A DNA stretch of 64,000 bases from Candidatus Rokuibacteriota bacterium (GTDB lineage: Bacteria; Methylomirabilota; Methylomirabilia; Rokubacteriales; DASRDR01), in assembly GCA_044866005.1 (NCBI GenBank), contig JBIOTN010000067.1, positions 4,899 to 68,898 of the forward strand, read 5' to 3'. This document shows positions 15,730 through 47,875 of the stretch, piece by piece (the first letter of the stretch is position 1; every line of letters begins with the position of its first letter). The notes under the pieces were generated by a model, which had not been told where the DNA came from, ran no database searches, and worked only from the letters and a program-made list of their open reading frames with translations. A program made the position numbers and the translations under genes.

Positions 15730-16197
15730 ATGGCCGAGCTGATCCACGTCTCCCGGGTCAGGATCGTGAAGGACAAGGGGCCGGTGCGGCGCGCCTACAT
15801 CGAGCAGTTCCCGGACCCGGTGCGCTACGGCGTCCACGGCGGCATCAAAGACTTCTACGGGGTGGACCCGGTGGAGGAGCTGCCCACCACCCTCGACCAC
15901 GTGATCGCGGCGGTCGCAGGGTGAATGACCGGGACGCTAGCCGGGGCGCTAGCGGCGCGGAAGATCCCGACCCAGCCCGATCGCCTCTCCTCCGAGGTCG
16001 AGGGATTCATCGAGAACGTGGACGGCAAGCCCTTGATCACCCGGATCAAGGTCCACTACAAGCTCCGGGTCCCTCCGGGCAAGCGCGCAGAAGCGCTGCG
16101 GGCGATCGAGGTGCATGAGCAGGGCTGCCCGGCGTCCCAATCAGTCAGGCGCGGCATCGCGATCGAGTGGGACGGCGACGTGCACGAGGAGGCTTGA
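15730..16197 (+). CDS. OsmC/Ohr-family peroxiredoxin with in-frame TGA (15922-15924) at the peroxidatic Cys position; candidate selenoprotein
   Basis: The two ORFs 15730-15924 and 15925-16197 are in frame. The motif HVIAAVAG-[TGA]-MTGTLAGALAAR matches OsmC AAHAAC-FSMALS, and the second Cys GCPASQS is conserved. A hairpin lies 10 nt after the TGA. GAGGAGGAG RBS. Confidence 0.65.
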
Positions 16198-16314
16198 GCG
16201 CCACTCGGCCCGTCGCCGGCTCGCGGCCGCGCGCGCAGTGTTATCATTGAAGCGTCGAGGAGGCGTCGGGCCGCGTCGCGGGCCCGCAAACCAGTGGTTG
16301 CCCGGAGGTCCGAG

Positions 16315-17196
16315 ATGGACATCGGCACGTTGCGGTTGAAGGTCGGCTTCGCGGAGATGTTGAAGGGCGGCGTCGTCATGGACGTGACGACCGCCGAGCA
16401 GGCCCGGATCGCGGAGGACGCCGGCGCCTGCGCGGTGATGGCGCTGGAGCGGGTCCCCGCCGACATCCGCCGGGAGGGCGGGGTCGCCCGGATGGCCAGC
16501 GTCCGGAAGGTCCGCGAGATCATCGACGCCGTCTCCATCCCCGTCATGGCGAAGTGCCGCATCGGGCACTTCGTCGAGGCCCAGATCCTCCAGGCGCTCG
16601 GCGTGGACTACATCGACGAGTCCGAGGTCCTGACCCCCGCGGACGAGCACTTCCACGTGGACAAGTTCGCCTTCACCGTGCCCTTCGTGTGCGGCGCGCG
16701 GGACCTCGGCGAGGCCCTCCGCCGGATCGGGGAAGGGGCGGCGATGATCCGCACCAAGGGCGAGGCGGGCTCGGGGAACATCGTGGAGGCCGTGCGGCAC
16801 ATCCGAAAGGTCATCGGCCACATCAAGCGGCTCACGACGCTGGGCCCGGAGGAGCTGATGGCCGAGGCCAAGGAGCTCGGGGCGCCCTACGAGCTCGTCC
16901 GGTGGGTCGCGCGCGAGGGCCGGCTGCCGGTGCCGAACTTCGCGGCGGGCGGCGTGGCGACCCCCGCCGACGCGGCGCTCATGATGCAGCTCGGCGCCGA
17001 GGCGATCTTCGTCGGCTCGGGCGTCTTCAAGTCCGCCGACCCCGCCGCGCGCGCCCGCGCCATCGTCCAGGCGACGACCCACTACCGCGACCCGGACGTC
17101 CTGGCGAAGGTCTCGGAGGCGCTCGGCGAGGCGATGCCGGGCATCGAGACCTCCAAGCTGCCGGCGTCCGAACGGCTCGAGACGCGCGGCTGGTGA
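16315..17196 (+). CDS. pdxS: Pyridoxal 5'-phosphate synthase, lyase subunit
   Basis: Highly conserved PdxS sequence. Confidence 0.95.
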
Positions 17197-17279
17197 CCCC
17201 GGGCGCGGGCCCCGCGGCCGACGTCCCGGTCGAGGTGGACCCGGCCGGCCGGCCGTCGCGGGCGCCGGGTCGAGAGGGG

Positions 17280-17867
17280 ATGCGGATCGGGGTCCTGGCG
17301 CTCCAGGGGGACTTCGCCGCGCACACGCGGGCGCTCGGTCGCCTGGGCATCGAGGCGCCGGAAGTCCGGAAACCCGCCGAGCTCGCGCGCCTCGACGGCC
17401 TCGTCCTCCCCGGCGGCGAGAGCACGACCCTGCTCACGCTGATGGGCGAGGAGTTCCCGCCGGCGCTCCGCGCCTTCCACGCGGCCGGCAAGCCGCTCTA
17501 CGGGACCTGCGCGGGATTGATCGTGCTCGCCCGGGAGGTGCTCGGCCCGCGCCAGCCCTCCGTCGGGCTGATCGACCTCACGGTCGAGCGCAACGCGTAC
17601 GGCCGCCAGCGCGAGTCCTTCGAAGCGGAGGGCGAGGCGCGGCTCGGCGGCGCGCCCGCGCCGCTGCGCATGGTCTTCATCCGCGCCCCGCGTATCGTCC
17701 GCGCGGGGCCCGGCGTGACGACGCTCGCCACGTGGAAGGACGAGCCCGTGCTGGTCCGGGAGGGGCCGGTCCTGGCGAGCACGTTCCACCCCGAGTTGAC
17801 GGACGAGCTCGCCATCCACCGGTACCTGGCGCAGATGGTCGTGGCGGCCGGCCGGCCGTCGGGCTGA
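17280..17867 (+). CDS. pdxT: Pyridoxal 5'-phosphate synthase, glutaminase subunit
   Basis: Conserved PdxT with GTCAG catalytic Cys. Confidence 0.95.
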   Translation: MRIGVLALQGDFAAHTRALGRLGIEAPEVRKPAELARLDGLVLPGGESTTLLTLMGEEFPPALRAFHAAGKPLYGTCAGLIVLAREVLGPRQPSVGLIDLTVERNAYGRQRESFEAEGEARLGGAPAPLRMVFIRAPRIVRAGPGVTTLATWKDEPVLVREGPVLASTFHPELTDELAIHRYLAQMVVAAGRPSG

Positions 17868-17908
17868 CCGCCGCCACCTCGGTCCGTGCGAGGGCTCGGG
17901 AGGTGGCC

Positions 17909-20566: not shown

Positions 20567-23014
20567 CTAGAGCGCCAGCTTCCGCAGGCGGAGGGCGTTG
20601 CCGACGACGGAGACGGAGCTGACGCTCATCGCCGCGCTGGCGACCACCGGGCTCAAGAGCAGACCGAAGACGGGGTAGAGGACGCCGGCGGCGAGCGGGA
20701 CGCCGAGCGAGTTGTAGACGAAGGCGAAGAAGAGGTTCTGCCGGATGTTCCGCATCGTGGCCCGGCTCAGCCGGCGGGCCCGCACGATGCCCCGCAGGTC
20801 GCCCTTGACCAGGGTCACCGCGGCGCTCTCCATGGCGACGTCCGTCCCCGTCCCCATCGCGATCCCCACGTCGGCCTGGGCCAGCGCCGGCGCGTCGTTG
20901 ATGCCGTCACCCGCCATCGCCACCCGCCGGCCCTCGGCCTGGAGGCGCCGGACGACCTCGCCCTTCGCCGCCGGCAGGACCTCCGCCTCGACGCGGTCGA
21001 TCCCGAGCGCGCGGGCGACGGCCTCGGCGGTCGTCCGGCTGTCGCCGGTGAGCATGACGACCTGGAGGCCCTCCTCGCGGAGCAGGCGGATCGCCTCGGC
21101 GCTGGACGGCTTGATGGGGTCGGCGACGCCGAGCAGGCCGGCCGCCCGGCCCTCCACGACGACGAACACGACGGTCTGCCCGTCCTGGCGGAGCTTCTCC
21201 GCCTGACCGGCCAGGACCCCGGGCGCGACGGCCAGCTCGTCCAGCAGCCGCGCGTTCCCGAGCGCCACCGCCCGGCCGTCCACGCGGCCCACCACGCCCT
21301 TGCCGGTGAGCGACCGGAACTCGGTCAGCTCGCCGAGCGCGAGGCCGCGCGCGGTGGCCCCCGCGACGATCGCCGCGGCGAGCGGGTGCTCGCTCCCCCG
21401 CTCGAGCGTCGCGCCGAGGCGCAGGAGCTCCCCGTCGGCGAGGGGCGGCAGGACCACGATGGAAGTCAGGCGCGGCTTGCCCTCCGTGAGGGTGCCGGTC
21501 TTGTCCACCACCACCGTGTCCACCCGCTCCATGATCTCCAGGGCCTCGGCGTGCTTGACGAGCACGCCCGCCGTCGCGCCCCGGCCCGTGGCGACCATGA
21601 TGGACATCGGCGTGGCCAGGCCGAGCGCGCACGGGCAGGCGATGATCAGCACGGCCACCGCGTTCACGAGCGCGTAGGCCAGGCGCGGCTCGGGCCCGAC
21701 GAGCGCCCACGCGGCGAAGGTCAGCCCCGCGATCGCCACGACCGCCGGCACGAAGTACGAGGAGACCACGTCGGCCAGACGCTGGATCGGCGCGCGCGTG
21801 CGCTGGGCTTCGCCGACCATGCGCACGATCTGGGCGAGGAGCGTGTCGCTGCCGACCCGCTCGGCCCGCATGACGAAGCTCCCCGTGCCGTTCACGGTTC
21901 CGCCGGTCACCCGGCTCCCCGGCGTCTTCTCCACGGGGACGGGCTCGCCCGTCAGCATGGACTCGTCGACGGCGCTCGCGCCCTCGAGCACGACGCCGTC
22001 CACGGGGACGCGCTCGCCCGGGCGGACGCGGAGCCGGTCGCCGGGGGCCACCTGCTCGAGCGGCACGTCTTCCTCCGCCCCGGCCTCGCCGAGGCGTCGC
22101 GCCGTCTTCGGCGCCAGCCCCAGCAGCGCGCGGATCGCGCTGCTGGTCCGGCTGCGGGCGCGGAGCTCGAGGACCTGCCCCAGCAGCACCAGCACCGTGA
22201 TGATCGCCGCCGGCTCGAAGTAGACGGGAACCTCGCCGCCGTGGCCGCGGAAGGCGGGCGGGATGAGCCCGGGCGCGAGCGTCGCCGCGACGCTGTACCC
22301 GTACGCCATGCCGATCCCGAGCGCGATGAGCGTGAACATGTTCAGGCTGCGGTTCACGATCGAGGCATAGCCGCGCTGGAAGAGCGGCCAGCCGCCCCAG
22401 AGGACCACCGGCGTGGCGAGGGCCAGCTCGAGCCAGGTCACCGCGCGCATCGACAGCGCGCGCTGGACCGGCTGCCCGGGCCACATGTCCGACATCGCGA
22501 GGACCAGGATGGGGACGGAGAGGAGCAGGCTCACCCGGAAGCGGCGGGACATGTCCACGAGCTCCGGGCTCACCTCGGCCTCGGCCGTCACCGTCCGGGG
22601 CTCGAGCGCCATCCCGCAGATCGGGCAGAGGCCCGGCTCGGGCCGGACGATCTCCGGGTGCATCGGGCAGAAGTACTCGGTCCGGAATGCGGGTGCCGCG
22701 GCGACCGGCGGCTCGAGCGCCATCCCGCACTTCGGGCACGCGCCGGGTCGGGGCTCGCGGACCTCGGGGTCCATCGGGCACGTGTAGCCGCCGGCCGTCG
22801 CCTCCGCCGCCGCGGCGCTCCGGCGCTCGCCGGAGGGCGCCACGTAGCGCCCGGGGTCTGCGCGGAACCGCTCGAGGCAGGAGGGGTGACAGAAGAGGTA
22901 CGTCCGGCCGCCGTAGGCGTGGCGTCCGGCGGCCTCGGCCGGCTCCACCGTCATCCCGCAGACGGGGTCCGTCGCCGCCTGTCCGATCGCCTGCGCCCGC
23001 TCGTCCCCTGTCAT
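20567..23014 (-). CDS. copA: Cu(I)-translocating P1B-type ATPase with N-terminal YHS/TRASH-type metal-binding domains
   Basis: CPC, DKTGT and GDGINDAP motifs; the N-terminus has CGM...FC YHS-like motifs rather than a classical HMA domain; RBS GAGGTGA. Confidence 0.9.
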
Positions 23015-23187
23015 GGCGTCACCTCTACAGAGGGTATACCCGGGCCCGGAGATGCGGGAGCCCCGCGCGGGGGCCGCGCCCGGCCGGCGGAGTGCAAGAC
23101 GCTGCCGGCGCCGGGCGCCGGATGTAGAATGAGCGGGTCCGCGGCGACTGCTGTACTCCGCCTTCGGAGTCTTGGAGGACCACGCGC

Positions 23188-24636
23188 ATGACGACCGCAC
23201 CCAGCGCCAGCTACAGCATGACGATGCGGCTCGAGATCCGGAACCGCCCGGGGATGCTCGGGAAGATCGCCTCCGCGATCGGGAAGGCGGGCGGGGACAT
23301 CGGCGCCGTGGACCTGGTCCAGGTGGGCGCGGGCGTGCTCACGCGCGACATCACGTTCAACGCGCGGGACGAGGAGCACGGCCAGTCGGTCGTCGGGGCG
23401 GTGCGCCGGGTCGCCGGGGTTCGGGTCGTCGCGGTGTCGGACCGCACGTTCCTCATGCACCTGGGCGGCAAGATCGAGGTGCGGGGGAAGGTGCCGGTGA
23501 AGACGCGCGACGACCTGTCGATGGCGTACACGCCGGGGGTGGCGCGCGTCTGCCTGGCCATCCGCGACGAGCCGCAGACGGCCTACGCGCTGACCATCAA
23601 GCAGAACACGGTCGCCGTCGTCACCGACGGCACCGCGGTGCTGGGGCTGGGCGACATCGGGCCGAAGGCCGCCATGCCCGTGATGGAAGGCAAGGCGCTC
23701 CTGTTCAAGGAGTTCGCCGGCGTGGATGCCTTCCCCCTCTGCCTGGCGACCAAGGACGTGGACGAGATCGTCGCGATCGTCCGCGCGGTGTCGCCGGTCT
23801 TCGGGGGCATCAACCTGGAGGACATCGCCGCCCCGCGCTGCTTCGAGATCGAGGAGCGGCTCCGCAAGGAGCTCGACATCCCGGTCTTCCACGACGACCA
23901 GCACGGGACCGCGGTCGTGGTCCTGGCCGCGCTGATCAACGCGCTCAAGGTGGTCAAGAAGAGGCTCGCGGACGTGCGCGTCGTCTTCTCCGGCGCGGGC
24001 GCCTCGGGGATCGCGACGGCGAAGCTCCTCATGGCGGTCGGCTGCCGGCACATCATCGGCTGTGACCGCTCGGGCACGCTCTACCGGGGTCGCCGCGAGA
24101 ACATGAATCCGGTCAAGGCGTGGTTCGCCGAGCACACGAACGAAAAGCGCGTGCGGGGCAGCTGCGGCGACGCCCTCCGCGGCGCCGATGTCTACATCGG
24201 GCTGTCCGGGCCCGGGGTGGTGACGCCGCGGGAGGTGCGGCGGATGGCGCGCCACGCGGTCGTCTTCGCCATGGCGAACCCGGTGCCCGAGATCATGCCG
24301 GAGGACGTCCAGGGGATGGTCCGCGTCATGGCCACGGGCCGGTCGGACTACGCGAACCAGATCAACAACGTGCTCTGCTTCCCGGGCTTCTTCCGCGGCC
24401 TGCTGGACGTGCGGGCGCGGCTGGTGAACGACGAGATGAAGATCGCGGCCGCCCGCGGCATCGCCTCCATCATCGCGGCGAGCGAGCTGGGCGAGGAGTA
24501 CATCATCCCCTCGGTCTTCGACAAGCGCGTGGTCGAGGCGGTGGCGGACGGGGTCGCCCGCGCCGCCGTGCAGACCGGGGTGGCGCGTCGCCGCCGTCGG
24601 CTCCCCGCGGGGGGCGCCGGCCGGAACGGCGCGTAG
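23188..24636 (+). CDS. NAD(P)-dependent malic enzyme with N-terminal ACT domain
   Basis: Malic-enzyme NAD-binding domain; ACT-like N-terminus. Confidence 0.9.
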
Positions 24637-24679
24637 CCGCCCCCGCGGGCGGAGCCGGGCCGGCCGGCGAGGCCACGGG

Positions 24680-25252
24680 ATGCGCCGGCTCGCGGGACCG
24701 TCGATCGTGGCGCTCGCGCTCCTGGCCGGCGTCCCCCGGAGCGGGCCGGCCGCCCCACCGGGCCTCCCGCGACTCGGGGCCGCCCCGAACTTCGCCCTGA
24801 CGACCCACCTGAATGACCGCGTCTGGCTCACCCAGCTCCGCGGCCGCGCCGTCGTCCTCACGTTTACCTGCGCGACATGTGGAGCGTGTCCCACCGTCGT
24901 GCCGACCCTCGCCGAGGTGGCGCGCGGGCTGGGCGAGGCGGCGGGCGGACGGGTCTTCTTCGTCGCGGTGACGGTCGACCCGCGCCATGACAGCGCCGCC
25001 GTCCTCCGGGACTTCGCCCGGGCGCACGGTCTGAGCCCGCTGGCGTGGCTTCTCCTCACCGGGACGCCGGCCGAGGTGGAGGTGGTGGCCCGGCGCTTCG
25101 GCGTGGAGGCCCGGGCCGACGCCTTGTCCGAGGCCGCCTGCCCGGTGGTGCTGATCGACCGCACCGGCACGATCCGCGTGCGCTACCGGGGCCCGGAGCT
25201 CGGCCGCCTCCGCTTCGACCTGGTGCAGCTTCTCGCCGAGCCTGCCGGCTAG
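24680..25252 (+). CDS. SCO1/SenC-family copper chaperone (thioredoxin fold)
   Basis: CxxxC motif FTCATCGAC; signal/anchor sequence. Confidence 0.8.
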   Translation: MRRLAGPSIVALALLAGVPRSGPAAPPGLPRLGAAPNFALTTHLNDRVWLTQLRGRAVVLTFTCATCGACPTVVPTLAEVARGLGEAAGGRVFFVAVTVDPRHDSAAVLRDFARAHGLSPLAWLLLTGTPAEVEVVARRFGVEARADALSEAACPVVLIDRTGTIRVRYRGPELGRLRFDLVQLLAEPAG

Positions 25253-25275
25253 CCGGTCAAAAGACTTGACCTTCC
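25203..25275. repeat. Direct repeat copy 1 (about 73 bp). Covers the 3' end of the SCO1 gene and a TTGACC box.
   Basis: About 92% identical to 25993-26066. Confidence 0.8.
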
Positions 25276-25387
25276 GGTCCTCACAGCACAGAGCTCCAGC
25301 CTTCCTTGGCGCTTGCGGGCGCAAAAGGAAGGGACTGCCGCATGGCGGCGTGGTAGGATATTTCATCATACCCGGGAAGGTTGCCAC

Positions 25388-25630
25388 GTGCCGAAGACCA
25401 AGGTCGCCATCACGCTCGATGCCGAGCTGCTTGATCGGGTCGATGAACTGGTCGCCCGACGAGAGTTCCGCAATCGGAGCCAGGCCATCGAGGCCGCGCT
25501 CGCCGAGAAGCTGGCAAGGGCCCGACGGACGCGCCTGGCGCGGGAGTGCGCAAAGCTCGACCCCGAGGAGGAGAAAGCCCTCGCCGAGGAAGGCCTCGCC
25601 GGGAGCTCTGACTCGTGGCCCGAATACTGA
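25388..25630 (+). CDS. Ribbon-helix-helix (CopG-family) antitoxin
   Basis: GTG start after GGGAAGG; KVAITLDAELLDRVDEL RHH motif; overlaps the mazF start. Confidence 0.7.
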   Translation: MPKTKVAITLDAELLDRVDELVARREFRNRSQAIEAALAEKLARARRTRLARECAKLDPEEEKALAEEGLAGSSDSWPEY

Positions 25631-25950
25631 GGGGCGAGATCCGCTGGGCCGACCTCAATCCAGTTCGCGGCCGGGAACAGGCTGGGCTCCGACCCATTCT
25701 GGTCCTGAGCCATGACGTGTTCAATGAGCGCTCCGCGACGGTCATTGCCGTCGCCCTGACCAGTCGAGAGCCCCGCGCTGGGTTTCCGCTCACGCTCGAG
25801 AGTAACGCCCGGGGTTTGCCGAAGCGATCGTGGATCCGGATCAGCCAAGTCCGGACACTTTCCGTGGAGAGGATCGGGCGGCGTCTGGCGCGCGCCTCTG
25901 AGGAAGAGGTTGATCGCGTCGTGGAGGGCCTCAGCGAGATAATCGGCTGA
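25615..25950 (+). CDS. mazF: MazF/PemK-family toxin endoribonuclease
   Basis: RGEIRWADLNP..GREQAGLRPILVLS motif typical of MazF. Confidence 0.8.
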   Translation: MARILRGEIRWADLNPVRGREQAGLRPILVLSHDVFNERSATVIAVALTSREPRAGFPLTLESNARGLPKRSWIRISQVRTLSVERIGRRLARASEEEVDRVVEGLSEIIG

Positions 25951-25992
25951 CGGCGTGATCCACGGCGGTTCGCGTTGCCCGCACAGTCCGGG

Positions 25993-26066
25993 CCCGCCTC
26001 CGCTTCGACTTGATCCAGCTTCTCGCCGAGCTCGCCGGCTAGCGGGTCAAAAGACTTGACCTTCCC
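25993..26066. repeat. Direct repeat copy 2 (about 73 bp), continuous with the CueR-box promoter
   Basis: About 92% identical to 25203-25275. Confidence 0.8.
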
Positions 26067-26085
26067 CTTCCTGGAAGCCGCACCG
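26055..26085 (+). promoter_or_regulatory. MerR/CueR-type promoter: TTGACC, 19-bp spacer containing CCTTCC-N7-GGAAGC
   Basis: Near-identical to the E. coli copA CueR operator (TTGACCTTCCCCTTGCTGGAAGG). Confidence 0.5.
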
Positions 26086-36581: not shown

Positions 36582-36603
36582 AGTCGCGCGACGGAGAGCT
36601 CTC

Positions 36604-38250: not shown

Positions 38251-38265
38251 CGGGCTCTCGCGGCT

Positions 38266-39345
38266 CTAAGCGGCCGTCCGGTCGAGCGATGACGGCGGCT
38301 CGAGCTTGTTCGCGCGATACCAGCCGAGGGGGTCGGCCTCGAGCGCGGCGATCATCTTGGGGAGCGTGCCTCCGAGCGAACGCTTCGGCTCCCAGCCGAG
38401 CAGGGTGCGCGCCCGGGTGATGTCGAGGGCGTAATGGTCGTCGGCGAGGTCGATCATCCACGGCTTGATGAACGGCTCGTCGCCCAGGGGCATCTGATCC
38501 TGGACCCAGGCGCCGGCCTTGGCCAGGGCCTTCGGGATCTCGCGCGTCTCCCACTCTTCCCCGTGGATCAGCCGACCGAGCGTGTGTTGCAGCTCGTCGT
38601 AGCTGAGCGTCGCCGGCTCTCCCACGAGCAGCGGCAGCTCCGGCGGCAGCTCGGCCCGGCGCTCGACGACCCTGAGGAAGGCCTCCACCAGATCCTCGAG
38701 GTGGACGAACGCCTGTCCGTGCGAGATGGCGCCGGGAAAGACGCGACTCGTGACCCGGCGCTCGTAGATCCGCTGAATCTGGCGCGCGAGCGGGATCGAG
38801 TGGCACCGGTCATCGTAGACGCCGGCGATCCGCAGGAGCACCGCGGGGATGTCACCGCGCTCGGCGCGGATGAGTCGCTCGGTCGTGACTTTCGACTCGG
38901 GGTAGTCCCACTTGGGCTCGAGCGGCCAATCTTCGTTGATGCGCTGACCGGGTGCGCAAGGCGCATGGACGAGCATGGTGCTGGAGAACACGAACTGCTC
39001 GACCTGGAAGCGCTTGACGGCCCGAAGCAGCCGCTCGGTTCCTCGGATCGTAATCTCCTCGTATTTCGGGCTCGGCTCGCCGGAGAAGTCGTAGTACGCG
39101 GCGAGGTGGATGATCGAGGCGACGCGCTCGCCGTGGCGGGCGCGGACGCCGGCGAGGGCGCGGTCGACGCTCTCGTCCGAGGTGAGGTCGACGCGCACGC
39201 AGCCGGCGGTAGGTGGCGGCTCGGGCGGGTCGTCACGGTCGAAGCCCACGGTCGTGACGCGTTCGGTGAGCCTCTTGGCCGCCGCATAGCCGATGAGTCC
39301 GCTGCTCCCCGTGACGATCACGACCCCCGGCGATCGCGAGTCCAT
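38266..39345 (-). CDS. NAD-dependent epimerase/dehydratase (SDR family)
   Basis: VVIVTGSSGLIGY Rossmann motif. Confidence 0.85.
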   Translation of the reverse strand: MDSRSPGVVIVTGSSGLIGYAAAKRLTERVTTVGFDRDDPPEPPPTAGCVRVDLTSDESVDRALAGVRARHGERVASIIHLAAYYDFSGEPSPKYEEITIRGTERLLRAVKRFQVEQFVFSSTMLVHAPCAPGQRINEDWPLEPKWDYPESKVTTERLIRAERGDIPAVLLRIAGVYDDRCHSIPLARQIQRIYERRVTSRVFPGAISHGQAFVHLEDLVEAFLRVVERRAELPPELPLLVGEPATLSYDELQHTLGRLIHGEEWETREIPKALAKAGAWVQDQMPLGDEPFIKPWMIDLADDHYALDITRARTLLGWEPKRSLGGTLPKMIAALEADPLGWYRANKLEPPSSLDRTAA

Positions 39346-39370
39346 GTGGCCTCCACCCGCTGACGGATGG

Positions 39371-39712
39371 CTACGGTTTGGGCGGCTGCTTGCCCGGGCT
39401 CATCATTCCGCCCGTCATGCCCCCCGAGCCCATGCGGCCCATCATCTCCATCATCCGGGTCATGCCGGCCATGACGTCGCCGTTTCCCATCTGGCGGGCC
39501 ATGCGCATCATCCCGTCCATCAGCTTGGCCGCGCGGCCGGACTGCAAGAGGTCCTGCATGGCGCGCCGGCCTTCCTCGCTCATGCCCCCGCCCTGCATCA
39601 TCTCGACGCAGGCCGCCTGGGGGTCGGCCGGCGCCTGTTGAGCGCGAGCGGTGGGGACGGCGAGCAGGGCCAGGAGCGCGGGTCCCAGGATCGTCACTGT
39701 CCGCAGTGTCAT
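39371..39712 (-). CDS. Secreted Met-rich protein (MxxM/MM repeats), likely a periplasmic Cu(I)/Ag(I) binder
   Basis: Signal peptide; 23 Met in 113 aa. Confidence 0.6.
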   Translation of the reverse strand: MTLRTVTILGPALLALLAVPTARAQQAPADPQAACVEMMQGGGMSEEGRRAMQDLLQSGRAAKLMDGMMRMARQMGNGDVMAGMTRMMEMMGRMGSGGMTGGMMSPGKQPPKP

Positions 39713-39826
39713 GGTCGATCCTCCTGTCGACGCCGGTGCGTGCGGTCCGTAACCCTGCAAAGCGGGTACCGCCGATCGCCCGGTTTGCGTGCGCCGGGAC
39801 GCGAAGGATGGTAAGCTACCGGCCAG

Positions 39827-40156
39827 ATGGGGAAGCGGAGTCACCCCGCCGTTCCGATGACCCCGGCTCTCGCCGCCGTGCTGGCGGTCGTGGTCGCCGG
39901 CTTCTGCCTCGCCATCGAGGCCGGGACGGCCCACGCCGCAGGCGACGGGTGTCCGGCCTCGGAGTCCTCGCCCCGGTTCTGCGCGCAGGCCGGTCCCGGC
40001 GATCAGGCGGTTCCGGGGCTGACCGTGGCGGCACTGGTGCCGCCGCCGGGGCCCGAGCTGGGCGACTGGCTGCCCGTCTCGGCCGCGCCGCCGCCGGCCG
40101 TCCGCTTCCACGCGGACGTCTCCCGCCCCCGCGCGCCCCCGCTCCTTCCCGCCTAG
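39827..40156 (+). CDS. Hypothetical secreted protein
   Basis: Signal peptide and two Cys; the opposite strand carries only a composition-driven ORF. Confidence 0.3.
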   Translation: MGKRSHPAVPMTPALAAVLAVVVAGFCLAIEAGTAHAAGDGCPASESSPRFCAQAGPGDQAVPGLTVAALVPPPGPELGDWLPVSAAPPPAVRFHADVSRPRAPPLLPA

Positions 40157-40271
40157 TCGCTCGATCTCGCTCGTTGGGATACCGGCCGCCGCGGACGGCG
40201 GCCAGGCTCGAGACTCGTCGCTCGACGTCATCGGACGACGTGTCCGTGGGCGCGTGGCGGAGGCGTGAACT

Positions 40272-40820
40272 GTGCGCGTGCAGCGGATTGCAGGCGGTCG
40301 GCCACACGTGGGGCTCGTCCTCGCGTTGCTCGTCTCCGTCTCGCCCGCGACGGTGTCGGATGCGACCGACGTCCGGCCGGCCGTCGGGCATCGCGCGCCC
40401 GATTTCGTCCTCCGCGATCCGGACGGCCAGCCGGTCGAGCTCTCCCGGATCCTCGGCGAGCACGCCGTCCTCCTCAACTTCTGGGCGACCTGGTGTCCGC
40501 CGTGCCGCGAGGAGATGCCGACGATGGAGCGGGCGTACCGCGACTACAAGGCGCGCGGGCTCACGGTCCTGGCCGTGAGCATCGACGCCGGCAGTGAAGC
40601 ATCCGTCAGGGCGAAAGTGAAGGCGTTCATGAAGGAGCTGAAGCTCACGTTCCCGGCCGTGCTGGACGTCGAGGGCGAGGTCGTGCGCCGCTACCGGCTG
40701 CGCGGCCTCCCCACGACGTTCCTGATCGACCGGACGGGCATGATTCGATCGGAGGAGCTCGGGTTCCGGGACTGGAGCGATGCCGCGGCGCGAAGGAAGC
40801 TGGACGCCCTGCTGAAATGA
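40272..40820 (+). CDS. TlpA/ResA-family periplasmic thiol:disulfide oxidoreductase (Cys form, WCPPC)
   Basis: GTG start; signal/anchor; [13 protein letters not shown]. Confidence 0.8.
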   Translation: [182 protein letters not shown]

Positions 40821-40830
40821 GTCCCCGCCC

Positions 40831-41598
40831 ATGGCGCTGATTCACGAGCTGATGCGGAGCTGGTACCTGGTGCTGAGCCGGTTGAGCGCCGCGCTCACCG
40901 TCCCGGTGAGCGACCTCGCCGACCGGATCGAGCTCCCGCTCCTCACGGTGCTGCTCTTCGGCGTGGTCGGCGCGATGGCGCCCTGTCAGCTCACGACGAA
41001 CCTCTCGGCGATGGCCTACGTCGGGAGCCGCGCCGGCGAGGGCCGGCCCTGGCGCGAGACGCTCGCCTACCTCGCGGGGAAGGCCCTCGTCTACACGCTG
41101 GTCGGCGCCGCCGTCTTCGCGGTCGGCCGGGAGCTCCAGGCGGCGGCCATTCCCGTGGCCATGGCGGCGCGAAAGGCGCTCGGGCCCCTCATGATCCTCA
41201 TCGGCCTGGGGCTGCTGGGGCTCTACCGGCTGCGCGGCTCGCTCGGCGGTCGGCTCTCCGCCTGGCTGCGGACCCGGGCACCGCAGCGCGGCGCGTGGGG
41301 CGCCTTCCTGCTCGGCGTGGCCTTTGCCGGGAGCTTCTGTCCCACGCTCTTCTGGCTCTTCTTCGGCCTGACGATCCCGCTGGCCCTGCGGAGCGCGGCC
41401 GGGTGGAGCTTCCCGGCGGTCTTCGCGGCCGGCACCACGCTGCCCCTCGTCGCGTTCGCCGGGCTGCTCGCGCTGGGGCGCGAGGCCGGCGGGCTGGTCG
41501 AGCGCCTCCAGCGCTCCCACGGGCTCGTGCACCGGATGGCGGGGGTGGTGATCATCCTGGCGGGGATCAACGACACGCTGACGTACTGGGCGCTCTGA
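40831..41598 (+). CDS. CcdA/DsbD-family transmembrane electron transporter
   Basis: Two conserved Cys (MAPCQL, SFCPT). Confidence 0.8.
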   Translation: MALIHELMRSWYLVLSRLSAALTVPVSDLADRIELPLLTVLLFGVVGAMAPCQLTTNLSAMAYVGSRAGEGRPWRETLAYLAGKALVYTLVGAAVFAVGRELQAAAIPVAMAARKALGPLMILIGLGLLGLYRLRGSLGGRLSAWLRTRAPQRGAWGAFLLGVAFAGSFCPTLFWLFFGLTIPLALRSAAGWSFPAVFAAGTTLPLVAFAGLLALGREAGGLVERLQRSHGLVHRMAGVVIILAGINDTLTYWAL

Positions 41599-41628
41599 GA
41601 CACGGCACGCTGAAACGGAGGATCTGAC

Positions 41629-42132
41629 ATGTCGAGGATCGAGCGAGAGCGAATCGGGGCGGCGGGCGGGGAGAACGGCGCGGGGACGGCCGGCCCGGGT
41701 GGCGGCGCGCGCTACTGTGCCGTGTGCGGGACGGCGGTGGGCGGCGAGAGTCCCCCGATCGAGCGCTTCGGCGAGCCGTTCTGCTCCGAGGCGCACGCGG
41801 CGGAGTTCGTCGACCGGGTGCGGGGCGCCCGGGTCCAGGCCGCGGCGAGGCCGCCGGCCGCGGGCAGCGCGTGTGCCATGGGTGCAGGCGACGCCGCCGC
41901 GCCGGGACAGCGCGGGAAGGCGACCCTCGGGCGGGCGCTCTGCTGGGGCGCGCCGCTCCTGGTCCTCGGCGTGCTGCTGGTCGGCGGCACCGGCGCGCTG
42001 GCGGGGGCGGCCGGCGCCCTCCTGCCCGCGCTCGCGATCCTGGCCTGCCCGCTCGGGATGTACCTGATGATGCGCTCGATGTCGAAGATGGGCCACCAGG
42101 ACGACCGCGGCGACACGGATGGCCGGAAGTAG
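41629..42132 (+). CDS. YHS-like metal-binding domain protein with C-terminal Met-rich TM segment (DUF2933-like)
   Basis: YCAVCG...EPFCSEAHAAEF; C-terminal ACPLGMYLMMRSM. Confidence 0.5.
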   Translation: MSRIERERIGAAGGENGAGTAGPGGGARYCAVCGTAVGGESPPIERFGEPFCSEAHAAEFVDRVRGARVQAAARPPAAGSACAMGAGDAAAPGQRGKATLGRALCWGAPLLVLGVLLVGGTGALAGAAGALLPALAILACPLGMYLMMRSMSKMGHQDDRGDTDGRK

Positions 42133-42199
42133 CGCCGGCCGTGCGCCGGGCGCGAGCGCTCGCCCTGACGGCACGGTCGAGTAAAAAGGGGCGCGACGC

Positions 42200-42820
42200 G
42201 TGAAGCTCTACGAGCGGTACGTGTTGCCGTGGCTGATCCACCTGGCCATGCAGACCCGCGTGCACACCGCGGAGCGGGCGCGGTTCGTCCCCATCGCCAC
42301 CGGGCTGGTCCTCGAGGTCGGGGTCGGCTCGGGGCTCAACCTGCCCTTCTATGGCCCGAAGGTCGCGCGGCTCTACGCGCTCGACCCCTCACGAGAGCTC
42401 TGGCGGCTGGCGCGCCGGCGGCTGCGAGCGGTCGCGTTCCCGGTCGACTATCTCGCGGCCTCGGCGGAGCAGATTCCCCTGGACGACGGGAGCGTGGACT
42501 CCGTCGTGAGCACGTGGACCCTCTGCACGATCCCGGATCCCGCCAGCGCGCTCGGCGAGATCAAGCGCGTCCTGAAGCCGGACGGGCGCTTCGTCTTCGT
42601 CGAGCACGGACGGGCGCCCGAGCCGGGCGTGCGCCGCTGGCAGCAGCGGCTCGACCGGGTCTGGCCGCGGATCGCGGGGGGCTGCCACCTCGGCCGCCAG
42701 ATCGACGACGTGATCGCCGGAGCCGGGTTCCGCGTGGCGCAGATCGAGCGCGGGTACACGCCGGGCTTGCCCCGGCCGTTCGGATACCGGTTCAAGGGGC
42801 TCGCCCAGCGCCCCGACTGA
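42200..42820 (+). CDS. Class I SAM-dependent methyltransferase
   Basis: VLEVGVGSG motif; paralogue at 50453. Confidence 0.8.
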   Translation: MKLYERYVLPWLIHLAMQTRVHTAERARFVPIATGLVLEVGVGSGLNLPFYGPKVARLYALDPSRELWRLARRRLRAVAFPVDYLAASAEQIPLDDGSVDSVVSTWTLCTIPDPASALGEIKRVLKPDGRFVFVEHGRAPEPGVRRWQQRLDRVWPRIAGGCHLGRQIDDVIAGAGFRVAQIERGYTPGLPRPFGYRFKGLAQRPD

Positions 42821-42836
42821 CCAACGGGAGGAAGAC

Positions 42837-43739
42837 GTGCGAAGACGCATACTGAGCTGGTTTCGGGTCGTAGGAGCGGGGGCGGCGCTGCTCGGGGCGA
42901 CAGGGCTTGCGTCCGCCGCCTCGCAGCATCCTGGCACGGCGAGCTCGACGTTCGAGCATGTCCACGCCCTGGCGATGGACGCCGAGGGCCGGACGCTCTG
43001 GCTCGGGACTCACGCCGGGCTCTTCCGGACCGAAGGCGGGGGACGGTCGTGGGAGCCGGTGGCGCTGCCTGTGCCGGCGGGCCACGCCGACATCATGACG
43101 GTGACCACCGACCCGGGCGATTCCCGGGTGCTCTACGCCGCCACGCACGATGCCGGGGTCTTCAAGAGCGTGGACGGCGGGGCGACGTGGAAAGCCGTGA
43201 ACGCCGGCCTCGGCGGGCTGGACGTCCACGGGCTCGCCGTCGACCCGAACACGCCGTCGAAGCTCCACGCCGCCGTGCGGGACAAGGGCGAGGGGATCTA
43301 TCGGAGCACCGATGGCGGCGGCAAGTGGACGCGCGTGGACGATGGACCCGGCGGCGAGGTCAAGGTCCTGGCCTCGGTCAACATGCCGACGGGGATGGGC
43401 GGCATCTGGCTGTACGCGGGCACGGCCGAGGGGCTTCAGCGGAACCCCGACTGTTTCTGAGGGTGGAAGCTCATGGCGGGCGGTCTGCCCGCCGGAAAGA
43501 CGGTGAACGGCTTCGCGGTGGATCCCACCAATCCGCGCCTGATGTACGTCGCGATGCGGGACGGCCTCTTCCGCAGCACGGATGGCGGCGAGAGCTGGAA
43601 GCCGGTAGGTAAGGGGCTCCGGGACATGGCGGTCGTGGTCGTGAACCCGAAGCGGCCGGCCGAGGTCTACGCGGCGACGACCGATGGGATGATCTACCGG
43701 AGCGCCGACGGAGGAACCACGTGGGAACGCCGGAAGTGA
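42837..43739 (+). CDS. Secreted BNR/Ycf48-like beta-propeller protein interrupted by an in-frame TGA (43458-43460)
   Basis: ORFs 42837-43460 and 43473-43739 are in the same frame. SxDGGxxW repeats lie on both sides of the TGA, and a 7-bp hairpin with a GGUCU loop sits 15 nt after it. Confidence 0.5.
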
Positions 43740-45265
43740 CGACGCTGTCGCGGCGGGACTTCCTCCGCCTGTCGGGCGGGGCCGGGGTCGGCGCCGTGGC
43801 CTTCTCGCTCGGCGGCGGCGTGCTCTCCCGCGCGGGCGCCGCGCCGGCCGGCGGGCGGGGCGTCCGGGAGATCCGGCTCGAGGCGAGCGACCTCACGTGG
43901 GAGCTCGCACCGGGGAAGCGCGTCAAGGCCATGGCCTACGGCGGCCAGGTCCCGGGGCCGGAGCTGCGGGTCAAGGAAGGCGAGCGCGTGCGCGTCATCC
44001 TGACGAACCGCCTCGCCGAGCCGACGACGATCCACTGGCACGGGGTGGACGTCCCGAACGCCATGGATGGCGTGCCGGCGGTCACGCAGAAGCCGGTGCC
44101 GCCCGGCGAGAGCTTCGTCTACGAGTTCGAGGCGCGGCCCGCCGGGACGCGCTGGTACCACACGCACGCCGACGAGCATCGGCAGCTGGACCTCGGTCTC
44201 GCGGCGCCGTTGATCATCGAGCCGGCGACCGCCGAGCCCTTCCCCTTCGACCGCGAGTACACGCTCGTCCTCGACGACTGGGCGACCGGGACGGGTCCGG
44301 CATTGCCGCCGACGCGCGAGGGGATCGCCGGCGCGCGCGGCGGCATGGGCGGGATGATGGGCCGAATGGGCGGCGGCATGGGCCGCATGATGGAAGGGAT
44401 GATGGGCCGGGGCGGCATGGGCGGGATGATGGGCGGCCAGATGTCGGGACGCGGGCACGAGCCGGCCTACGACACGATGACGATCAACGGCAAGGCCTAC
44501 CCGGCGACGACCCCGCTCACCGTGCGGAAGGGCGAGCGGGTCCGCCTGCGGCTGATCAACGCCAGCGCCGACCACACGCACGTGATCCGGCTCGCCGGCC
44601 ACCGCCTCCGGGTCACCCACACCGACGGCAATCCGCTCGTCCAGCCGGTCGAGGTGGACGCGATCCCGATCGCGCCCAGCGAGCGCTACGACGTCCTGTT
44701 CGTGGCCGATCGGCCGGGCGCGTGGTTCCTCCACTGTGTGCAGACCGGTCACCCGGGCGCGGGCGAGCAGGTCGCCGTGGTGTACGAGGGGCACGAGGGC
44801 GAGAGACCCGACCCGCCGGCCGGGGGCGTGGCCGGGCTCGACCTCTGGCAGTACGGGCTCGGCCGGGGCCGGGACGTGCTGCCGCGCGCGTGGGGGGGCG
44901 AGCGCGCGTTCGACCTCCTGCTGAGCGGCGGCATGATGGGCTCGGACGCCTGGACGATCAACGGCAAGCAGTACCCGCGCACGGATCCACTGCGCGTCCG
45001 GAAGGGCGACCGGGTCCGCGTCCGGTTCGAGAACCACAGCATGGAGGCGCACCCGATGCACCTCCACGGGCAGTCGTTCAAGGTCCTCGCCGTCAACGGC
45101 GCCCGGTACGCGGCCCCCATCGTGAAGGACAGCGTGGACGTGGACGCTCACATGGGCTCGGTCGTCGTCGAGTTCACCGCCCACAACCCCGGCGACTGGT
45201 TCCTCCACTGCCACAAGCCCATGCACATGGAGGGCGGCATGATCACCCTCGCCCAGATCGCCTGA
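43721..45265 (+). CDS. Multicopper oxidase (CopA/CueO-like) with Tat signal and Met/Gly-rich insert
   Basis: RRDFL; HWHG, HTH, HCH..H copper ligands. Confidence 0.9.
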   Translation: MGTPEVTTLSRRDFLRLSGGAGVGAVAFSLGGGVLSRAGAAPAGGRGVREIRLEASDLTWELAPGKRVKAMAYGGQVPGPELRVKEGERVRVILTNRLAEPTTIHWHGVDVPNAMDGVPAVTQKPVPPGESFVYEFEARPAGTRWYHTHADEHRQLDLGLAAPLIIEPATAEPFPFDREYTLVLDDWATGTGPALPPTREGIAGARGGMGGMMGRMGGGMGRMMEGMMGRGGMGGMMGGQMSGRGHEPAYDTMTINGKAYPATTPLTVRKGERVRLRLINASADHTHVIRLAGHRLRVTHTDGNPLVQPVEVDAIPIAPSERYDVLFVADRPGAWFLHCVQTGHPGAGEQVAVVYEGHEGERPDPPAGGVAGLDLWQYGLGRGRDVLPRAWGGERAFDLLLSGGMMGSDAWTINGKQYPRTDPLRVRKGDRVRVRFENHSMEAHPMHLHGQSFKVLAVNGARYAAPIVKDSVDVDAHMGSVVVEFTAHNPGDWFLHCHKPMHMEGGMITLAQIA

Positions 45266-45338
45266 CGATGTCGGACGGACGGCGAGGAGGCGAGGGCGGG
45301 AAGTCGCCGCATGGGCCGCTCGGGAGGAGGCCGACACC

Positions 45339-45914
45339 GTGAACCTGTCACGCTGGGGTTGGGGTTCCCGCGCCTCCCGGCTCGGATTGTTGGTGCTGGT
45401 GGGCCTGGCGGCGCCGGCGCTCGCGGCCTCGGGGCCCGGCGACGCGCCCAGGGACCCCTTCGACACCATGGGCGTGCACCGTCCGGCGGAGCCGGCGCCG
45501 GCTCCGGATCTGGCCTTCCGGTCGCTGGACGGTCGCGAGGCGCGCCTGCGCGACCTCCGGGGCAAGGTGGTCCTCCTCGGTTTGTTCCGGACCGACTGAC
45601 CCAACTGCCGGCGGGAGGCTCCCGCCAAGGCGGCGCTGTATCGGGCGTTCCGGGCAAAGGGACTGGAAGTCGTGGGACTCGACCTGGGGGAATCGGCGGA
45701 GATGGTCCGAGCCTTCGCGAGAGAGTTCCAGGTGACGTTCCCCATGTGGCTCGACCCCGCGGGCCAGAGTCCGGCGGCCCTCGGCGTCTACGGGCATCCC
45801 AACACGATCGTCATCGACCGCGAGGGCCGCATCGTCGGCCGCGTCCGGGGCGAGCGTGACTGGGGCACCGACGACGCCCGACGTCTGGTCGAGGTCCTGT
45901 TGAGCCGCCGATGA
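45339..45914 (+). CDS. TlpA/redoxin-family periplasmic oxidoreductase with D-[TGA]-PNC (UxxC); candidate selenoprotein
   Basis: ORFs 45339-45599 and 45672-45914 are in the same frame. GKVVLLGLFRTD-U-PNCRREAP aligns with [21 protein letters not shown] of the Cys paralogue at 40272. Hairpin 10 nt after the TGA. Confidence 0.6.
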
Positions 45915-46651
45915 CCCGGAAAACGGGGCTGGCCAGAATGCCGCGAGCGGCGTGGCTCGCCGGCCTCGTCGTCCTGCACGCCGCCGTCGCCGCCGTGGCG
46001 ACGTGGATGGCGGTCACCGGGCAATGGCCCCGCGCGCTGGGGCTCGGAGCGGCCGGCGAGTCCACGCCGGCGACCCTGGAGACGCTCGGCCGGTACGGCG
46101 AACTGCCGGACTTCCGGCTGACCGAGCGGAGCGGCGACAGTGTGAGCCGGGCCGACCTGCTCGGGAAGGTCTGGGTGGCGAACTTCGTCTACACGCAGTG
46201 CACCGAGACGTGCCCGCTGCAGACGGCCGAGATCGCGCGACTCCAGGCCGAGTTCGTGGGGGAGGCGGACTTCCGGCTCGTCTCGATCACCGTGGACCCC
46301 GAGCGGGATGACACGGCGGCCCTGTCGCGCTACGCGGAGCGCTACGGAGCGGACAGGCAGCGCTGGCTGTTCCTCACCGGGGACAAACGCGCGATCTACC
46401 GCCTCGCCAAGGACGGCTTCCGCCTGGGCGTCGTCGATCCCGACGACCCCGGAGCGAGCCAGACGAGCCTTCTCCACTCCTTCTCACCGGCCGCGGCGTG
46501 GGCGACCCACGGCTCCCAGGGCCTGATCATGCACAGCTCCCGGTTGGTGGTCGTGGACCGGACCGCGACGATCCGCGCCTATCACCTCCCCGACGACCCG
46601 CAATCGCTCGCTCGTCTCCGGCGGAACGTGCGGAGCGTGCTCCACCCGTGA
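45911..46651 (+). CDS. SCO1/SenC-family copper chaperone
   Basis: YTQCTETCP CxxxC; ATGA overlap with the previous gene. Confidence 0.8.
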   Translation: MTRKTGLARMPRAAWLAGLVVLHAAVAAVATWMAVTGQWPRALGLGAAGESTPATLETLGRYGELPDFRLTERSGDSVSRADLLGKVWVANFVYTQCTETCPLQTAEIARLQAEFVGEADFRLVSITVDPERDDTAALSRYAERYGADRQRWLFLTGDKRAIYRLAKDGFRLGVVDPDDPGASQTSLLHSFSPAAAWATHGSQGLIMHSSRLVVVDRTATIRAYHLPDDPQSLARLRRNVRSVLHP

Positions 46652-46784
46652 ACCAGCTCTGGAGGCTCGGCCGCTGGGCGGCCGCTGGCCTGGTCGTCGC
46701 CGTCGTGGCCAAGGTCAGCCTGGAGATCATGCGCGGCGGCCCGGGCCGCCACAACGTCGAGGCGGTGCGCGACGCGCGCGGCGG

Positions 46785-47369
46785 ATGAGGTCGCCGATGC
46801 CTCGCCTCGGAAAGTACGCCATGGTGCTCGTCCCGGCCGTCGGCCTGATCGGGCTCCTCGCCTATGGCTTTAGCCGGGACCCCCGCGACATCCGCTCGCC
46901 GCTCCTCGGGCGCCCCGCCCCGCCGCTGTCGCTGACGCTCTTCGACGGCAGCCGGTTCGTCCTGGCCCAGCAGGCGGACAAGGTCGTCGTCGTGAACTTC
47001 TGGGCGTCCTGGTGCCTGCCGTGCCGGGACGAGGCGCCGCTCCTCGAGGCCGCCTGGGTCGCCTACCGGGAGCGCGGGGTCGTCGTGGTCGGGGTAAACT
47101 TTCAGGACGCGGAGCCCGCCGCGCGCGCCTTCCTCGGTGAGTTCGGCCTGACGTACCCGAACGGGCCCGACGCCGGTGGGCGGATCGCGATCGGCTACGG
47201 CGTCTACGGGATCCCCGAGCTGTTCGTCATCGGGCGGGACGGGCGGATCGCGTACAAGCACATCGGCGCGATCGGGGGGACTGTGCTCGTGGCGAAGGTC
47301 GAAGAGGCCCTCCGCGGCACGGTCAGCGCGAGCGAGGGGCGGAGCGGGCGCTATCAACCGATCCGGTGA
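46785..47369 (+). CDS. DsbE/CcmG-like thiol:disulfide oxidoreductase
   Basis: NFWASWCLPCRDE. Confidence 0.8.
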   Translation: MRSPMPRLGKYAMVLVPAVGLIGLLAYGFSRDPRDIRSPLLGRPAPPLSLTLFDGSRFVLAQQADKVVVVNFWASWCLPCRDEAPLLEAAWVAYRERGVVVVGVNFQDAEPAARAFLGEFGLTYPNGPDAGGRIAIGYGVYGIPELFVIGRDGRIAYKHIGAIGGTVLVAKVEEALRGTVSASEGRSGRYQPIR

Positions 47370-47386
47370 CCGAAAGGAGCCACTCG

Positions 47387-47875
47387 GTGTCGCAGGACGA
47401 TCGGAACGTCGAGCGATCGCGCATCACGCTGCTGGCCGGAGGCCTCGCCCTGGCGCTCACCCTGGCGACCCGGCGGGAATCTCGCGCGGCGCCAACGCCC
47501 TTTCCCGAGGTCATGGTCTACAAGACCCCGACCTGACGCTGCTGCGACGCGTGGGTGGGGCACCTGCGCCAGCACGGGTTTTCGGTGACGGTCGAGAATC
47601 GCACGGACCTCCGGCCGATCAAGGCGAAGCACGCGGTGCCGGCCGAGCTCCAGACCTGTCACACGGCGCTCGTCGGCGGCTACGTCGTGGAAGGGCACGT
47701 GCCGGCCGACCTGATCGTCCGCCTGCTCCGCGAGCGGTCGCCGGTGGCCGGCCTCGCCGTCCCCGGGATGCCGGTCGGGTCGCCCGGGATGGAAGTGCCG
47801 GGGAGCCCGGCGGCCAAATATCAGGTCTTCAGCTTCGACCGGAGCGGCAAGACGACGGTGTTCGCGAGCCGGTGA
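47387..47875 (+). CDS. DUF411/CopG-family periplasmic copper-binding protein with T-[TGA]-RCC (UxCC in place of CxCC); candidate selenoprotein
   Basis: GTG start after AAAGGAG. Signal peptide, then MVYKTPT-U-RCCDAW. The C-terminal half (ORF 47555-47875) is in frame. A 9-bp hairpin lies 12 nt after the TGA. Confidence 0.6.

Follow-up and report, generated by a model that had tools for sequence, protein, structure and literature searches.

An inventory of prokaryotic selenoproteins (PMC13188914, 2026) tabulates 119 (sub)families, including, in its Table 1, OsmC-like proteins, the metal-binding proteins of NF041115, thioredoxin (Trx)-like proteins of PF13192, and redoxin/TlpA/Prx-like proteins. 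Deng et al. (2026), as summarized in that inventory, reported a Methylomirabilota metagenome-assembled genome (MAG) with 63 predicted selenoprotein genes and mentioned unvalidated novel candidates. The accounts given in PMC13188914 and PMC13326102 also cite selenoprotein genes clustered in metal or organometal loci (the Sao system; Haft & Gwadz 2023; Haft & Tolstoy 2025). In the copper protein CopG, Cys residues bridge a Cu4 cluster, and the protein has been proposed to act in Cu(I)/Cu(II) oxidoreduction or in transfer (PMC7558416, PMC8456105). Here, we analyzed a window of 64,000 nucleotides from a Candidatus Rokuibacteriota bacterium (assembly GCA_044866005.1, contig JBIOTN010000067.1, positions 4,899 to 68,898 of the forward strand), whose closest relatives are Rokubacteria/Methylomirabilota. 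An initial annotation of this window had pointed out six genes that are each interrupted by an in-frame TGA, and had proposed that these codons encode selenocysteine (Sec, U). We conclude that all six TGAs are very probably Sec codons, with a probability of about 0.9. The observations behind this conclusion are the TGAs themselves, their conservation on both sides, pairs of Sec and Cys forms, hairpins downstream of the codons, and synteny. The reported richness of Methylomirabilota in selenoproteins also speaks for it. Four of the genes extend known selenoprotein families by new members. The other two, a CopG/DUF411 protein with a UxCC motif and an Asp-box (BNR) beta-propeller with a CxU motif, seem to represent families of selenoproteins not described before; their type, with the Sec insertion sequence (SECIS) inside the open reading frame (ORF), is familiar.

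The G+C content of the whole window is 71%, and we therefore used third-position G+C to pick the real reading frames. We took as candidate sites every TGA with a strong coding signal in the same frame both 5' and 3' of the codon. Six recognizable and otherwise intact genes hold exactly one such TGA each (at 15922, 35230, 35453, 43458, 45597, and 47534), all of them where the initial annotation had placed them. The coding signal runs continuously across each codon, the third-position G+C being 0.82-0.95 in the unbroken frame before and after all six. A second pass over short extensions and short N-terminal pieces revealed no extra readthrough candidates in the window. Pfam confirmed the family assignment of all six genes (see the feature table below). 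In each of them the translated flanks of the UGA are conserved, and TGA-containing orthologues exist in other organisms. Homologues with a Cys aligned to the UGA were found for the OsmC, Trx, TlpA, HMA, and DUF411 genes and were lacking for the BNR propeller. Hence, the initial claim that the TGAs occupy the position of a redox or metal-binding Cys, for which alignment with Cys orthologues had been suggested as a check, stands for five genes and fails for the sixth.

Four of the genes have the same Pfam domains as the known OsmC-like, NF041115, PF13192, and redoxin/TlpA/Prx selenoproteins, and like them carry Sec at a redox or metal-binding Cys; these are the families that the initial annotation had named as having predicted Sec forms, and the inventory lists them. 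The U of the OsmC-like protein aligns to the first conserved (peroxidatic) Cys of seven full-length homologues, in the motif G-[GS]-C-[ML]-T-G-T-L. The same alignment has an invariant second Cys (GCPAS, C133), which the protein retains. Three orthologous loci have TGA at the matching site together with the hairpin that follows it, and around 100 homologue clusters consist of fragments of 89-90 aa that start at the ATG directly 3' of the TGA. In the HMA protein, the U aligns to the second Cys of the G-M-x-C-x-x-C motif of homologues; two orthologous loci (L083 and L108) carry the TGA and conserve the hairpin. In the Trx-like protein, U falls on the first Cys of the PGCxxC motif of 11 homologues, and locus L108 holds an orthologue of this gene too, with both the TGA and the hairpin. 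The Sec forms of OsmC, HMA, and the propeller all have orthologues in a single Rokuibacteriota MAG (GCA_050731755.1), spread over L083 and one of the OsmC loci (L106), and the Sec set therefore travels together across genomes.

In the TlpA-like protein, U takes the place of the first Cys of the W-C-x-P-C motif of Cys forms. Two Cys paralogues are present in the window, the gene at 40272 with WCPPC, as had been noted, and a second one at 46785 with WCLPC. Orthologues with TGA, reading U-P-N/K-C, were found at five loci; the hairpin is kept in two of them and has one mismatch in two others. Another TGA-interrupted redoxin (YRGRW-U-PYC) was seen on the minus strand of L093, at about 11815-12300, on a MAG contig that bears the Sec form of the propeller gene. 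The motifs in the window differ from those of the known selenoproteins in two cases, the HMA protein having CxxU instead of the UxxU of the NF041115 form and the TlpA-like protein U-P-N-C instead of UGC or WAxxUGC. When Cys was put in place of U in the queries, all selenoprotein-specific models of NCBIfam scored under their cut-offs. The OsmC-like protein reached 22.6 bits with NF041052 (OsmC-related (seleno)protein; cutoff 95) and is placed in the OsmC family through Pfam only. The HMA protein reached 85.6 bits with NF041115 ('metal-binding (seleno)protein'; cutoff 95) and, from its predicted sequence, is an HMA/MerP-like relative of that equivalog that lies outside it.

The DUF411 protein is a clear member of its family, scoring 86.6 bits with the Pfam domain (cutoff 27); NCBIfam release 20 has no model matching it. 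It matches the CopG of P. aeruginosa (PDB 6WIS) at 1.8e-29, and the alignment places U opposite the first Cys of C-G-C-C. Like this protein (6WIS/6WJE) and CutG of Rhodobacter capsulatus, it is a DUF411 domain of the thioredoxin-like periplasmic type, with the xCC motif and the conserved methionine segment GMPVGSPGME, and its gene shares a copper island with genes for a multicopper oxidase and P1B ATPases. Unlike in CopG and CutG, the first Cys of CxCC is encoded in the window by a TGA followed by a SECIS hairpin, giving UxCC with Sec instead of Cys as the first ligand. A metagenome scan returned 80 loci. The codon for the first Cys of CxCC is TGA in 33 of them and TGC or TGT in 44; the flanks around it are conserved (T-V-Y-K-S-P-T-[U/C]-G-C-C-x-x-W), and the contigs span 47-72% G+C. 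In these sequences, which are not independent, the hairpin in the same register has a mean free energy of -6.4 kcal/mol in 31 Sec forms versus +0.8 in 42 Cys forms (p=1e-5). The raw minimum free energy of a 39-nt window fails to separate Sec and Cys forms (p=0.63), whereas the register-specific hairpin does. The stem is paired in 76% of the alignment cells, against at most 52% when the partner strand is slid, and four pairs show double changes.

The propeller is more unusual than the UxCC CopG, because no Cys form of it was found. Its gene overlaps the start of the multicopper oxidase gene by 19 nt at the 3' end. In a scan of GTDB species genomes, we found 20 MAG loci, 19 of which have PDCF-TGA-GGN-TGG; their labels are Rokuibacteriota, Methylomirabilota, Acidiferrales, Deltaproteobacteria, Tectomicrobia, Binatia, and Syntrophobacteraceae. 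The TGA stands at the matching site in locus L003 too, and 115 of the 120 closest protein clusters end exactly at ...PDCF. The protein has repeated Asp-box hairpins on a propeller fold, with six repeats visible in the sequence. The Asp-box consensus is S-x-D-x-G-x-x-W. Set on it, the site reads N-P-D-C-F-U-G-W, where the Cys and the Sec flank the turn. An AlphaFold2 (AF2) model of a variant of this protein with Leu (TTA) in place of Sec (P0122), computed from an alignment of 45 sequences, is a propeller (predicted local distance difference test, pLDDT, 87; predicted template modelling score, pTM, 0.78) in which the D-C-F-x-G-W segment forms a turn after a strand, where the Asp-box hairpin turn lies. 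Foldseek matched the model to GH74 domains, 3B7F, Ycf48, and DAIP at a template modelling (TM) score of about 0.5. The BNR fold with repeated Asp-box hairpins is shared with Ycf48/HCF136, Reut_B4987 (PDB 3B7F), and DAIP, to which the identity is 17-21%. Unlike them, the propeller has a D-C-F-U-G-W Asp-box, seven invariant or near-invariant His, and a linkage to a multicopper oxidase. Of these proteins, Ycf48 assists in the assembly of a metalloprotein complex.

The His of the Sec-containing propellers lie in the motifs FEHVHALAMD, GTHAG, AGHADIM, ATHDAG, DVHGLAVDP, and KLHAAV, and TGMGG is conserved as well, a hint that the propeller may bind metal independently of the CxU site. The N-terminus, M-R-R-R-I-L-S-W, looks Tat-like, judging by sequence only. 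The protein scored 129 bits, with partial coverage, with NCBIfam NF045728 (F510_1955 family glycosylhydrolase; cutoff 175), and we dropped a reading as a glycosidase in view of the single propeller of 300 aa and the copper gene context. In two MAGs, a second BNR paralogue without Sec is found between the Sec gene and the multicopper oxidase (L087:3415-4233 and L093:5561-6466); it is 31-32% identical and has an ordinary Asp-box (SRDWGMIW or SQDWGVSW).

To be a bacterial SECIS (bSECIS) in the terms of PMC13188914, a hairpin needs a loop of 3-9 nt with a G in its first two positions, a stem of 4-16 bp, 16-37 nt from the UGA to the loop, and a free energy of at most -7.5 kcal/mol. All six hairpins fall within these limits, with stems of 6-9 bp starting 10-16 nt 3' of the TGA. 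They are present with the loops initially listed for them, that of the HMA gene being either GGA or, with a shorter stem, UUGGAGA; and the comparison with a bSECIS model that had been called for is passed by six of six. Among 785 in-frame positions taken as controls from the same genes, 15.8% have a hairpin within these limits, so that six out of six corresponds to P ~1.6e-5. Compensatory change among orthologues is clear for the propeller gene and moderate for DUF411, and the hairpins of the OsmC, HMA, Trx, and TlpA genes are retained in orthologues that are too few for covariation. The stem in the propeller gene is paired in 94.8% of the cells of 22 sequences, versus at most 56% with the partner slid, and three of its pairs show compensatory change (UA/UG/CG, CG/GC). 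Its loop, GGT-CT, is almost invariant though it demands a GGT glycine codon, which is presumably disfavoured in these mostly G+C-rich genomes.

This loop had been likened to that of the SECIS of E. coli fdhF. We checked a 49-nt fdhF SECIS sequence in 5419 E. coli genomes, where 47 of its 49 nt aligned at 100% identity. In fdhF as in the propeller gene, the hairpin is located immediately 3' of the UGA inside the ORF, and the resemblance holds in sequence and, in the orthologues, also in distance, since GGUCU(GC) starts at nt 22 from the U of the UGA in both. The gene in the window has one extra codon between the UGA and the SECIS (K-L-M-A versus K-x-V), which puts its loop 3 nt further from the UGA than in the 21 other sequences. 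Unlike fdhF, the propeller stem has no bulged U, and the two stems differ in sequence. The remaining five hairpins of the window share with fdhF only general bSECIS features, i.e., a small loop with G first and the spacing.

The alternative that survives best, although we consider it improbable, is that the UGAs are recoded independently of SECIS, a near-cognate tRNA inserting Trp, Cys, or Arg with the help of the hairpin, or that a stop followed by a restart gives two-piece or non-selenium proteins. Such a split would fit the ATG that comes directly after the OsmC TGA and the two ORFs that gene callers give per locus. Recoding could also be read from two singletons, the only close full-length sense versions that we found: one of the propeller, with TTA (Leu) at the Sec position (L103:289-1254, P0122), and one of OsmC, with GGA (Gly) there (L104:657-1121, P0241). 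They would indicate that the site can hold other residues. However, both are single, short, low-coverage contigs, one nucleotide away from TGA and with the hairpin still there. We therefore rejected these Leu and Gly homologues as evidence against Sec; by the look of their sequences, they are probably sequencing errors or very recent mutations. Elsewhere the TGA is kept at the identical codon across diverse lineages with no sense replacement. In five families the site is a catalytic or metal-binding Cys, so that a protein with Trp or Arg there, or a split one, would be inactive. The hairpins moreover fit the SelB-type model, and one of them copies the loop and spacing of fdhF.

It is less probable still that the genes are pseudogenes or that the TGAs arose from sequencing or assembly errors, as one might suspect from the metagenomic source of the assembly and from the annotation of each gene elsewhere as truncated fragments. 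An independent assembly (a Logan contig from another run, SRR30692729) matches at 100% identity a stretch of 4973 bp that includes the TGA of the propeller gene, and identical TGAs occur in dozens of diverged orthologues from independent samples. The downstream sequence is under purifying selection: in the 45 codons 3' of the propeller TGA, 54% of the differences are at third positions and a further Asp-box is kept, as expected if this part evolves as coding sequence. The match of the six sites to functional Cys, each with a qualifying hairpin, is also beyond chance. A genome-wide reassignment of UGA to a sense codon (e.g., Gly or Trp) can be dismissed, since nothing further than the in-frame TGAs themselves speaks for it, TGA is the ordinary terminator of 38 of the 51 genes of the window, the coding signal ends at these terminal TGAs, and only six in-frame TGAs show continued coding signal. 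The share of genes stopping at TGA, around 75%, makes them most, and not nearly all as had been stated, but the inference drawn from it, that the code is not reassigned, is sound. Orthologue TGAs, the hairpin probability, and stop-codon usage thus uphold the original argument against random nonsense mutations and a reassigned code.

Some results weigh against reading the six TGAs as Sec codons. Within the window, we found none of selA, selB, selD, and tRNA-Sec, and neither Rfam (at gathering thresholds) nor ARAGORN gave a match there; ARAGORN detected tRNA-Sec in 0 of 46 related loci. Taken singly, the HMA and Trx hairpins are each within the background range, the former being no better than about 15% of background positions and the latter borderline (-7.6 versus the threshold of -7.5). 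The DUF411 hairpin shows modest covariation, and the conserved peptide W-V-x-H-L, which it overlaps, accounts for part of the structure. The usual pairing of Sec and Cys forms is missing for the propeller: at the position of its Sec, the full-length relatives and the paralogues carry L, R, G, M, or V in ordinary Asp-boxes such as S-A-D-S-S-R-G-W, and they lack the neighbouring Cys as well. Finally, we infer Sec insertion, export, and every functional role, the roles from family membership and gene order only.

DUF411/CopG and BNR/Ycf48-like proteins are absent from the 119 (sub)families of PMC13188914, and a full-text literature search returned nothing relevant joining DUF411, CopG, BNR, or Asp-box with selenocysteine or selenoprotein; a prior description may exist elsewhere. 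The initial annotation knew of no UxCC CopG/DUF411, which agrees with both searches. Both the UxCC CopG and the CxU propeller occur widely among uncultured bacteria of soil and groundwater. The novelty also claimed for the clustered set is partial. Judging from the passages of PMC13188914 and PMC13326102 on Sao-type neighbourhoods, metal-related loci that group several different selenoprotein genes with those for transporters and thioredoxin-like proteins have been published as a kind, whereas the proteins found here and their copper context (multicopper oxidase, SCO1, CopG, P1B ATPases) differ from what those passages describe.

Pfam scans delimited a copper and heavy-metal island in the window, and five of the six Sec genes are inside it, within 12.8 kb (35.1-47.9 kb). 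The dense set of Sec genes initially described for this island is thus real for five of them, whereas the OsmC gene sits outside, adjoining pdxS. The gene order TlpA-CcdA-hypothetical-(methyltransferase)-propeller-multicopper oxidase-SCO1-TlpA, the propeller and the last TlpA being Sec forms, recurs in MAG loci of several phyla. The hypothetical gene at 41629-42132 encodes a protein of 167 aa without a Pfam match, which is conserved beside the Sec propeller gene in many MAG loci and has a Met-rich membrane tail and the motif Y-C-A-V-C-G...P-F-C-S-E-A-H, which by eye resembles TRASH/YHS. The P1B ATPase on the minus strand has YHS and HMBD N-terminal metal-binding domains in place of HMA. At 49894-50274, an ADH_N (GroES-like) domain of 126 aa stands alone before an unrelated methyltransferase, which suggests a truncated gene for an alcohol dehydrogenase.

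Feature table. Selenoprotein genes, their downstream hairpins, and other genes of the copper island, in positions of the 64,000-nt window
Feature	Position	Strand	Details
OsmC-like selenoprotein gene	15730..16197	+	Sec codon 15922-15924, AVAG-U-MTGT; Pfam OsmC 4.2e-11
SECIS-like hairpin, OsmC gene	15935..15954	+	CGCTAGC-CGGGGC-GCTAGCG; -10.4 kcal/mol; 17 nt from UGA to loop
Copper/heavy-metal island	20570..49127	both	Pfam scans
P1B ATPase	20570-23200	-	
SCO1/SenC	24680, 45911		
MerR regulators	26685, 35788		
P1B ATPase	27123-29537	+	
CopZ-like HMA chaperone	30086		
MacB-type ABC	30347-33493		
DsbD/CcdA-like membrane proteins	34085, 40831		
Periplasmic MerP/CopZ-like HMA selenoprotein gene	35107..35415	+	Sec codon 35230-35232, GMVCQA-U (CxxU); Pfam HMA 9.3e-13
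SECIS-like hairpin, HMA gene	35249..35265	+	CAGCCTT-GGA-GAGGCTG; -8.4 kcal/mol; 23 nt from UGA to loop
Small Trx-like (Thioredoxin_3) selenoprotein gene	35417..35683	+	Sec codon 35453-35455, PG-U-GKC (UxxC); PF13192 1.2e-10
SECIS-like hairpin, Trx-like gene	35470..35485	+	CGCCAA-GGCG-TTGGCG; -7.6 kcal/mol; 20 nt from UGA to loop
VKOR	36808-38250	-	
Cys TlpA paralogues	40272, 46785		
Exported Asp-box (BNR) beta-propeller selenoprotein gene	42837..43739	+	Sec codon 43458-43460, N-P-D-C-F-U-G-W (CxU); Pfam Sortilin-Vps10/BNR
SECIS hairpin, BNR gene	43474..43494	+	TGGCGGGC-GGTCT-GCCCGCCG; -15.8 kcal/mol; fdhF-like GGUCU loop
Multicopper oxidase	43721-45265		
Exported TlpA/ResA-like thiol:disulfide oxidoreductase selenoprotein gene	45339..45914	+	Sec codon 45597-45599, U-P-N-C; Pfam AhpC-TSA 8.9e-22, also Redoxin
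SECIS-like hairpin, TlpA-like gene	45610..45626	+	GGCGGGA-GGC-TCCCGCC; -12.2 kcal/mol; 17 nt from UGA to loop
Exported CopG/DUF411 selenoprotein gene	47366..47875	+	Sec codon 47534-47536, PT-U-RCC; Pfam DUF411 9.2e-25
SECIS-like hairpin, DUF411 gene	47549..47569	+	GCGTGGGTG-GGG-CACCTGCGC; -12.3 kcal/mol
YtkA-like	48219		

If the six TGAs are Sec codons, each UGA would be read by tRNA-Sec and SelB, recruited by the bacterial SECIS inside the ORF, with the apical loop 17-23 nt after the UGA. The products would include a cytoplasmic OsmC-type peroxidase with a peroxidatic Sec and a small Trx-like protein with UxxC. Four others have hydrophobic N-termini that, from their residues alone, resemble signals: the HMA (CxxU), TlpA (UxxC), CopG (UxCC), and propeller (CxU) proteins. 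The five proteins of the island may form a selenium-dependent layer of envelope copper handling, in which the Sec forms of TlpA and Trx would keep metal-binding thiols and selenols reduced, with electrons arriving through the DsbD/CcdA-like membrane proteins. The Sec forms of HMA and CopG would bind Cu(I) via a selenolate, and the Sec of CopG could be a ligand of the Cys-bridged Cu4 cluster. For the propeller, the most likely role would be to partner the multicopper oxidase or to help it mature, via a surface CxU site that may bind metal or form a selenenylsulfide. We infer this partnership because the propeller gene is directly upstream of, and overlaps, the oxidase gene. Taken as a whole, a stronger proposal is tentative and, in our view, somewhat doubtful: that the propeller is an obligate selenoprotein without a Cys counterpart, with an invariant PDCF-U-GW site, and a hitherto unrecognised periplasmic partner or maturation factor of the oxidase, and that together with the UxCC CopG, the UxxC TlpA, and the CxxU MerP it makes up a selenium-dependent copper-detoxification module, conserved in Rokubacteria as well as in no fewer than four further uncultured lineages.

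Thousands of database entries are truncated fragments of these proteins, of 106 aa for DUF411, about 207 aa for the propeller, and 89-90 aa for OsmC. Recognition of the Sec codons repairs these entries and adds two families to the selenoprotein catalogue. Most of the metal-related selenoproteins known from bacteria have to do with Hg and As, and selenium would here enter envelope copper homeostasis, beside a multicopper oxidase, SCO1, and CopG. Whether the Cu4 cluster of CopG has a Sec ligand is a concrete and testable bioinorganic question. Selenoproteins without Cys homologues are rare, and a propeller family lacking a Cys form could show what Sec does beyond Cys; the fdhF-like SECIS of its gene suggests that direct expression in E. 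coli may be possible. If the module proposed above is real, CopG would carry a selenolate-bridged Cu4 cluster, and the copper tolerance of these soil and groundwater bacteria would depend on their selenium supply.

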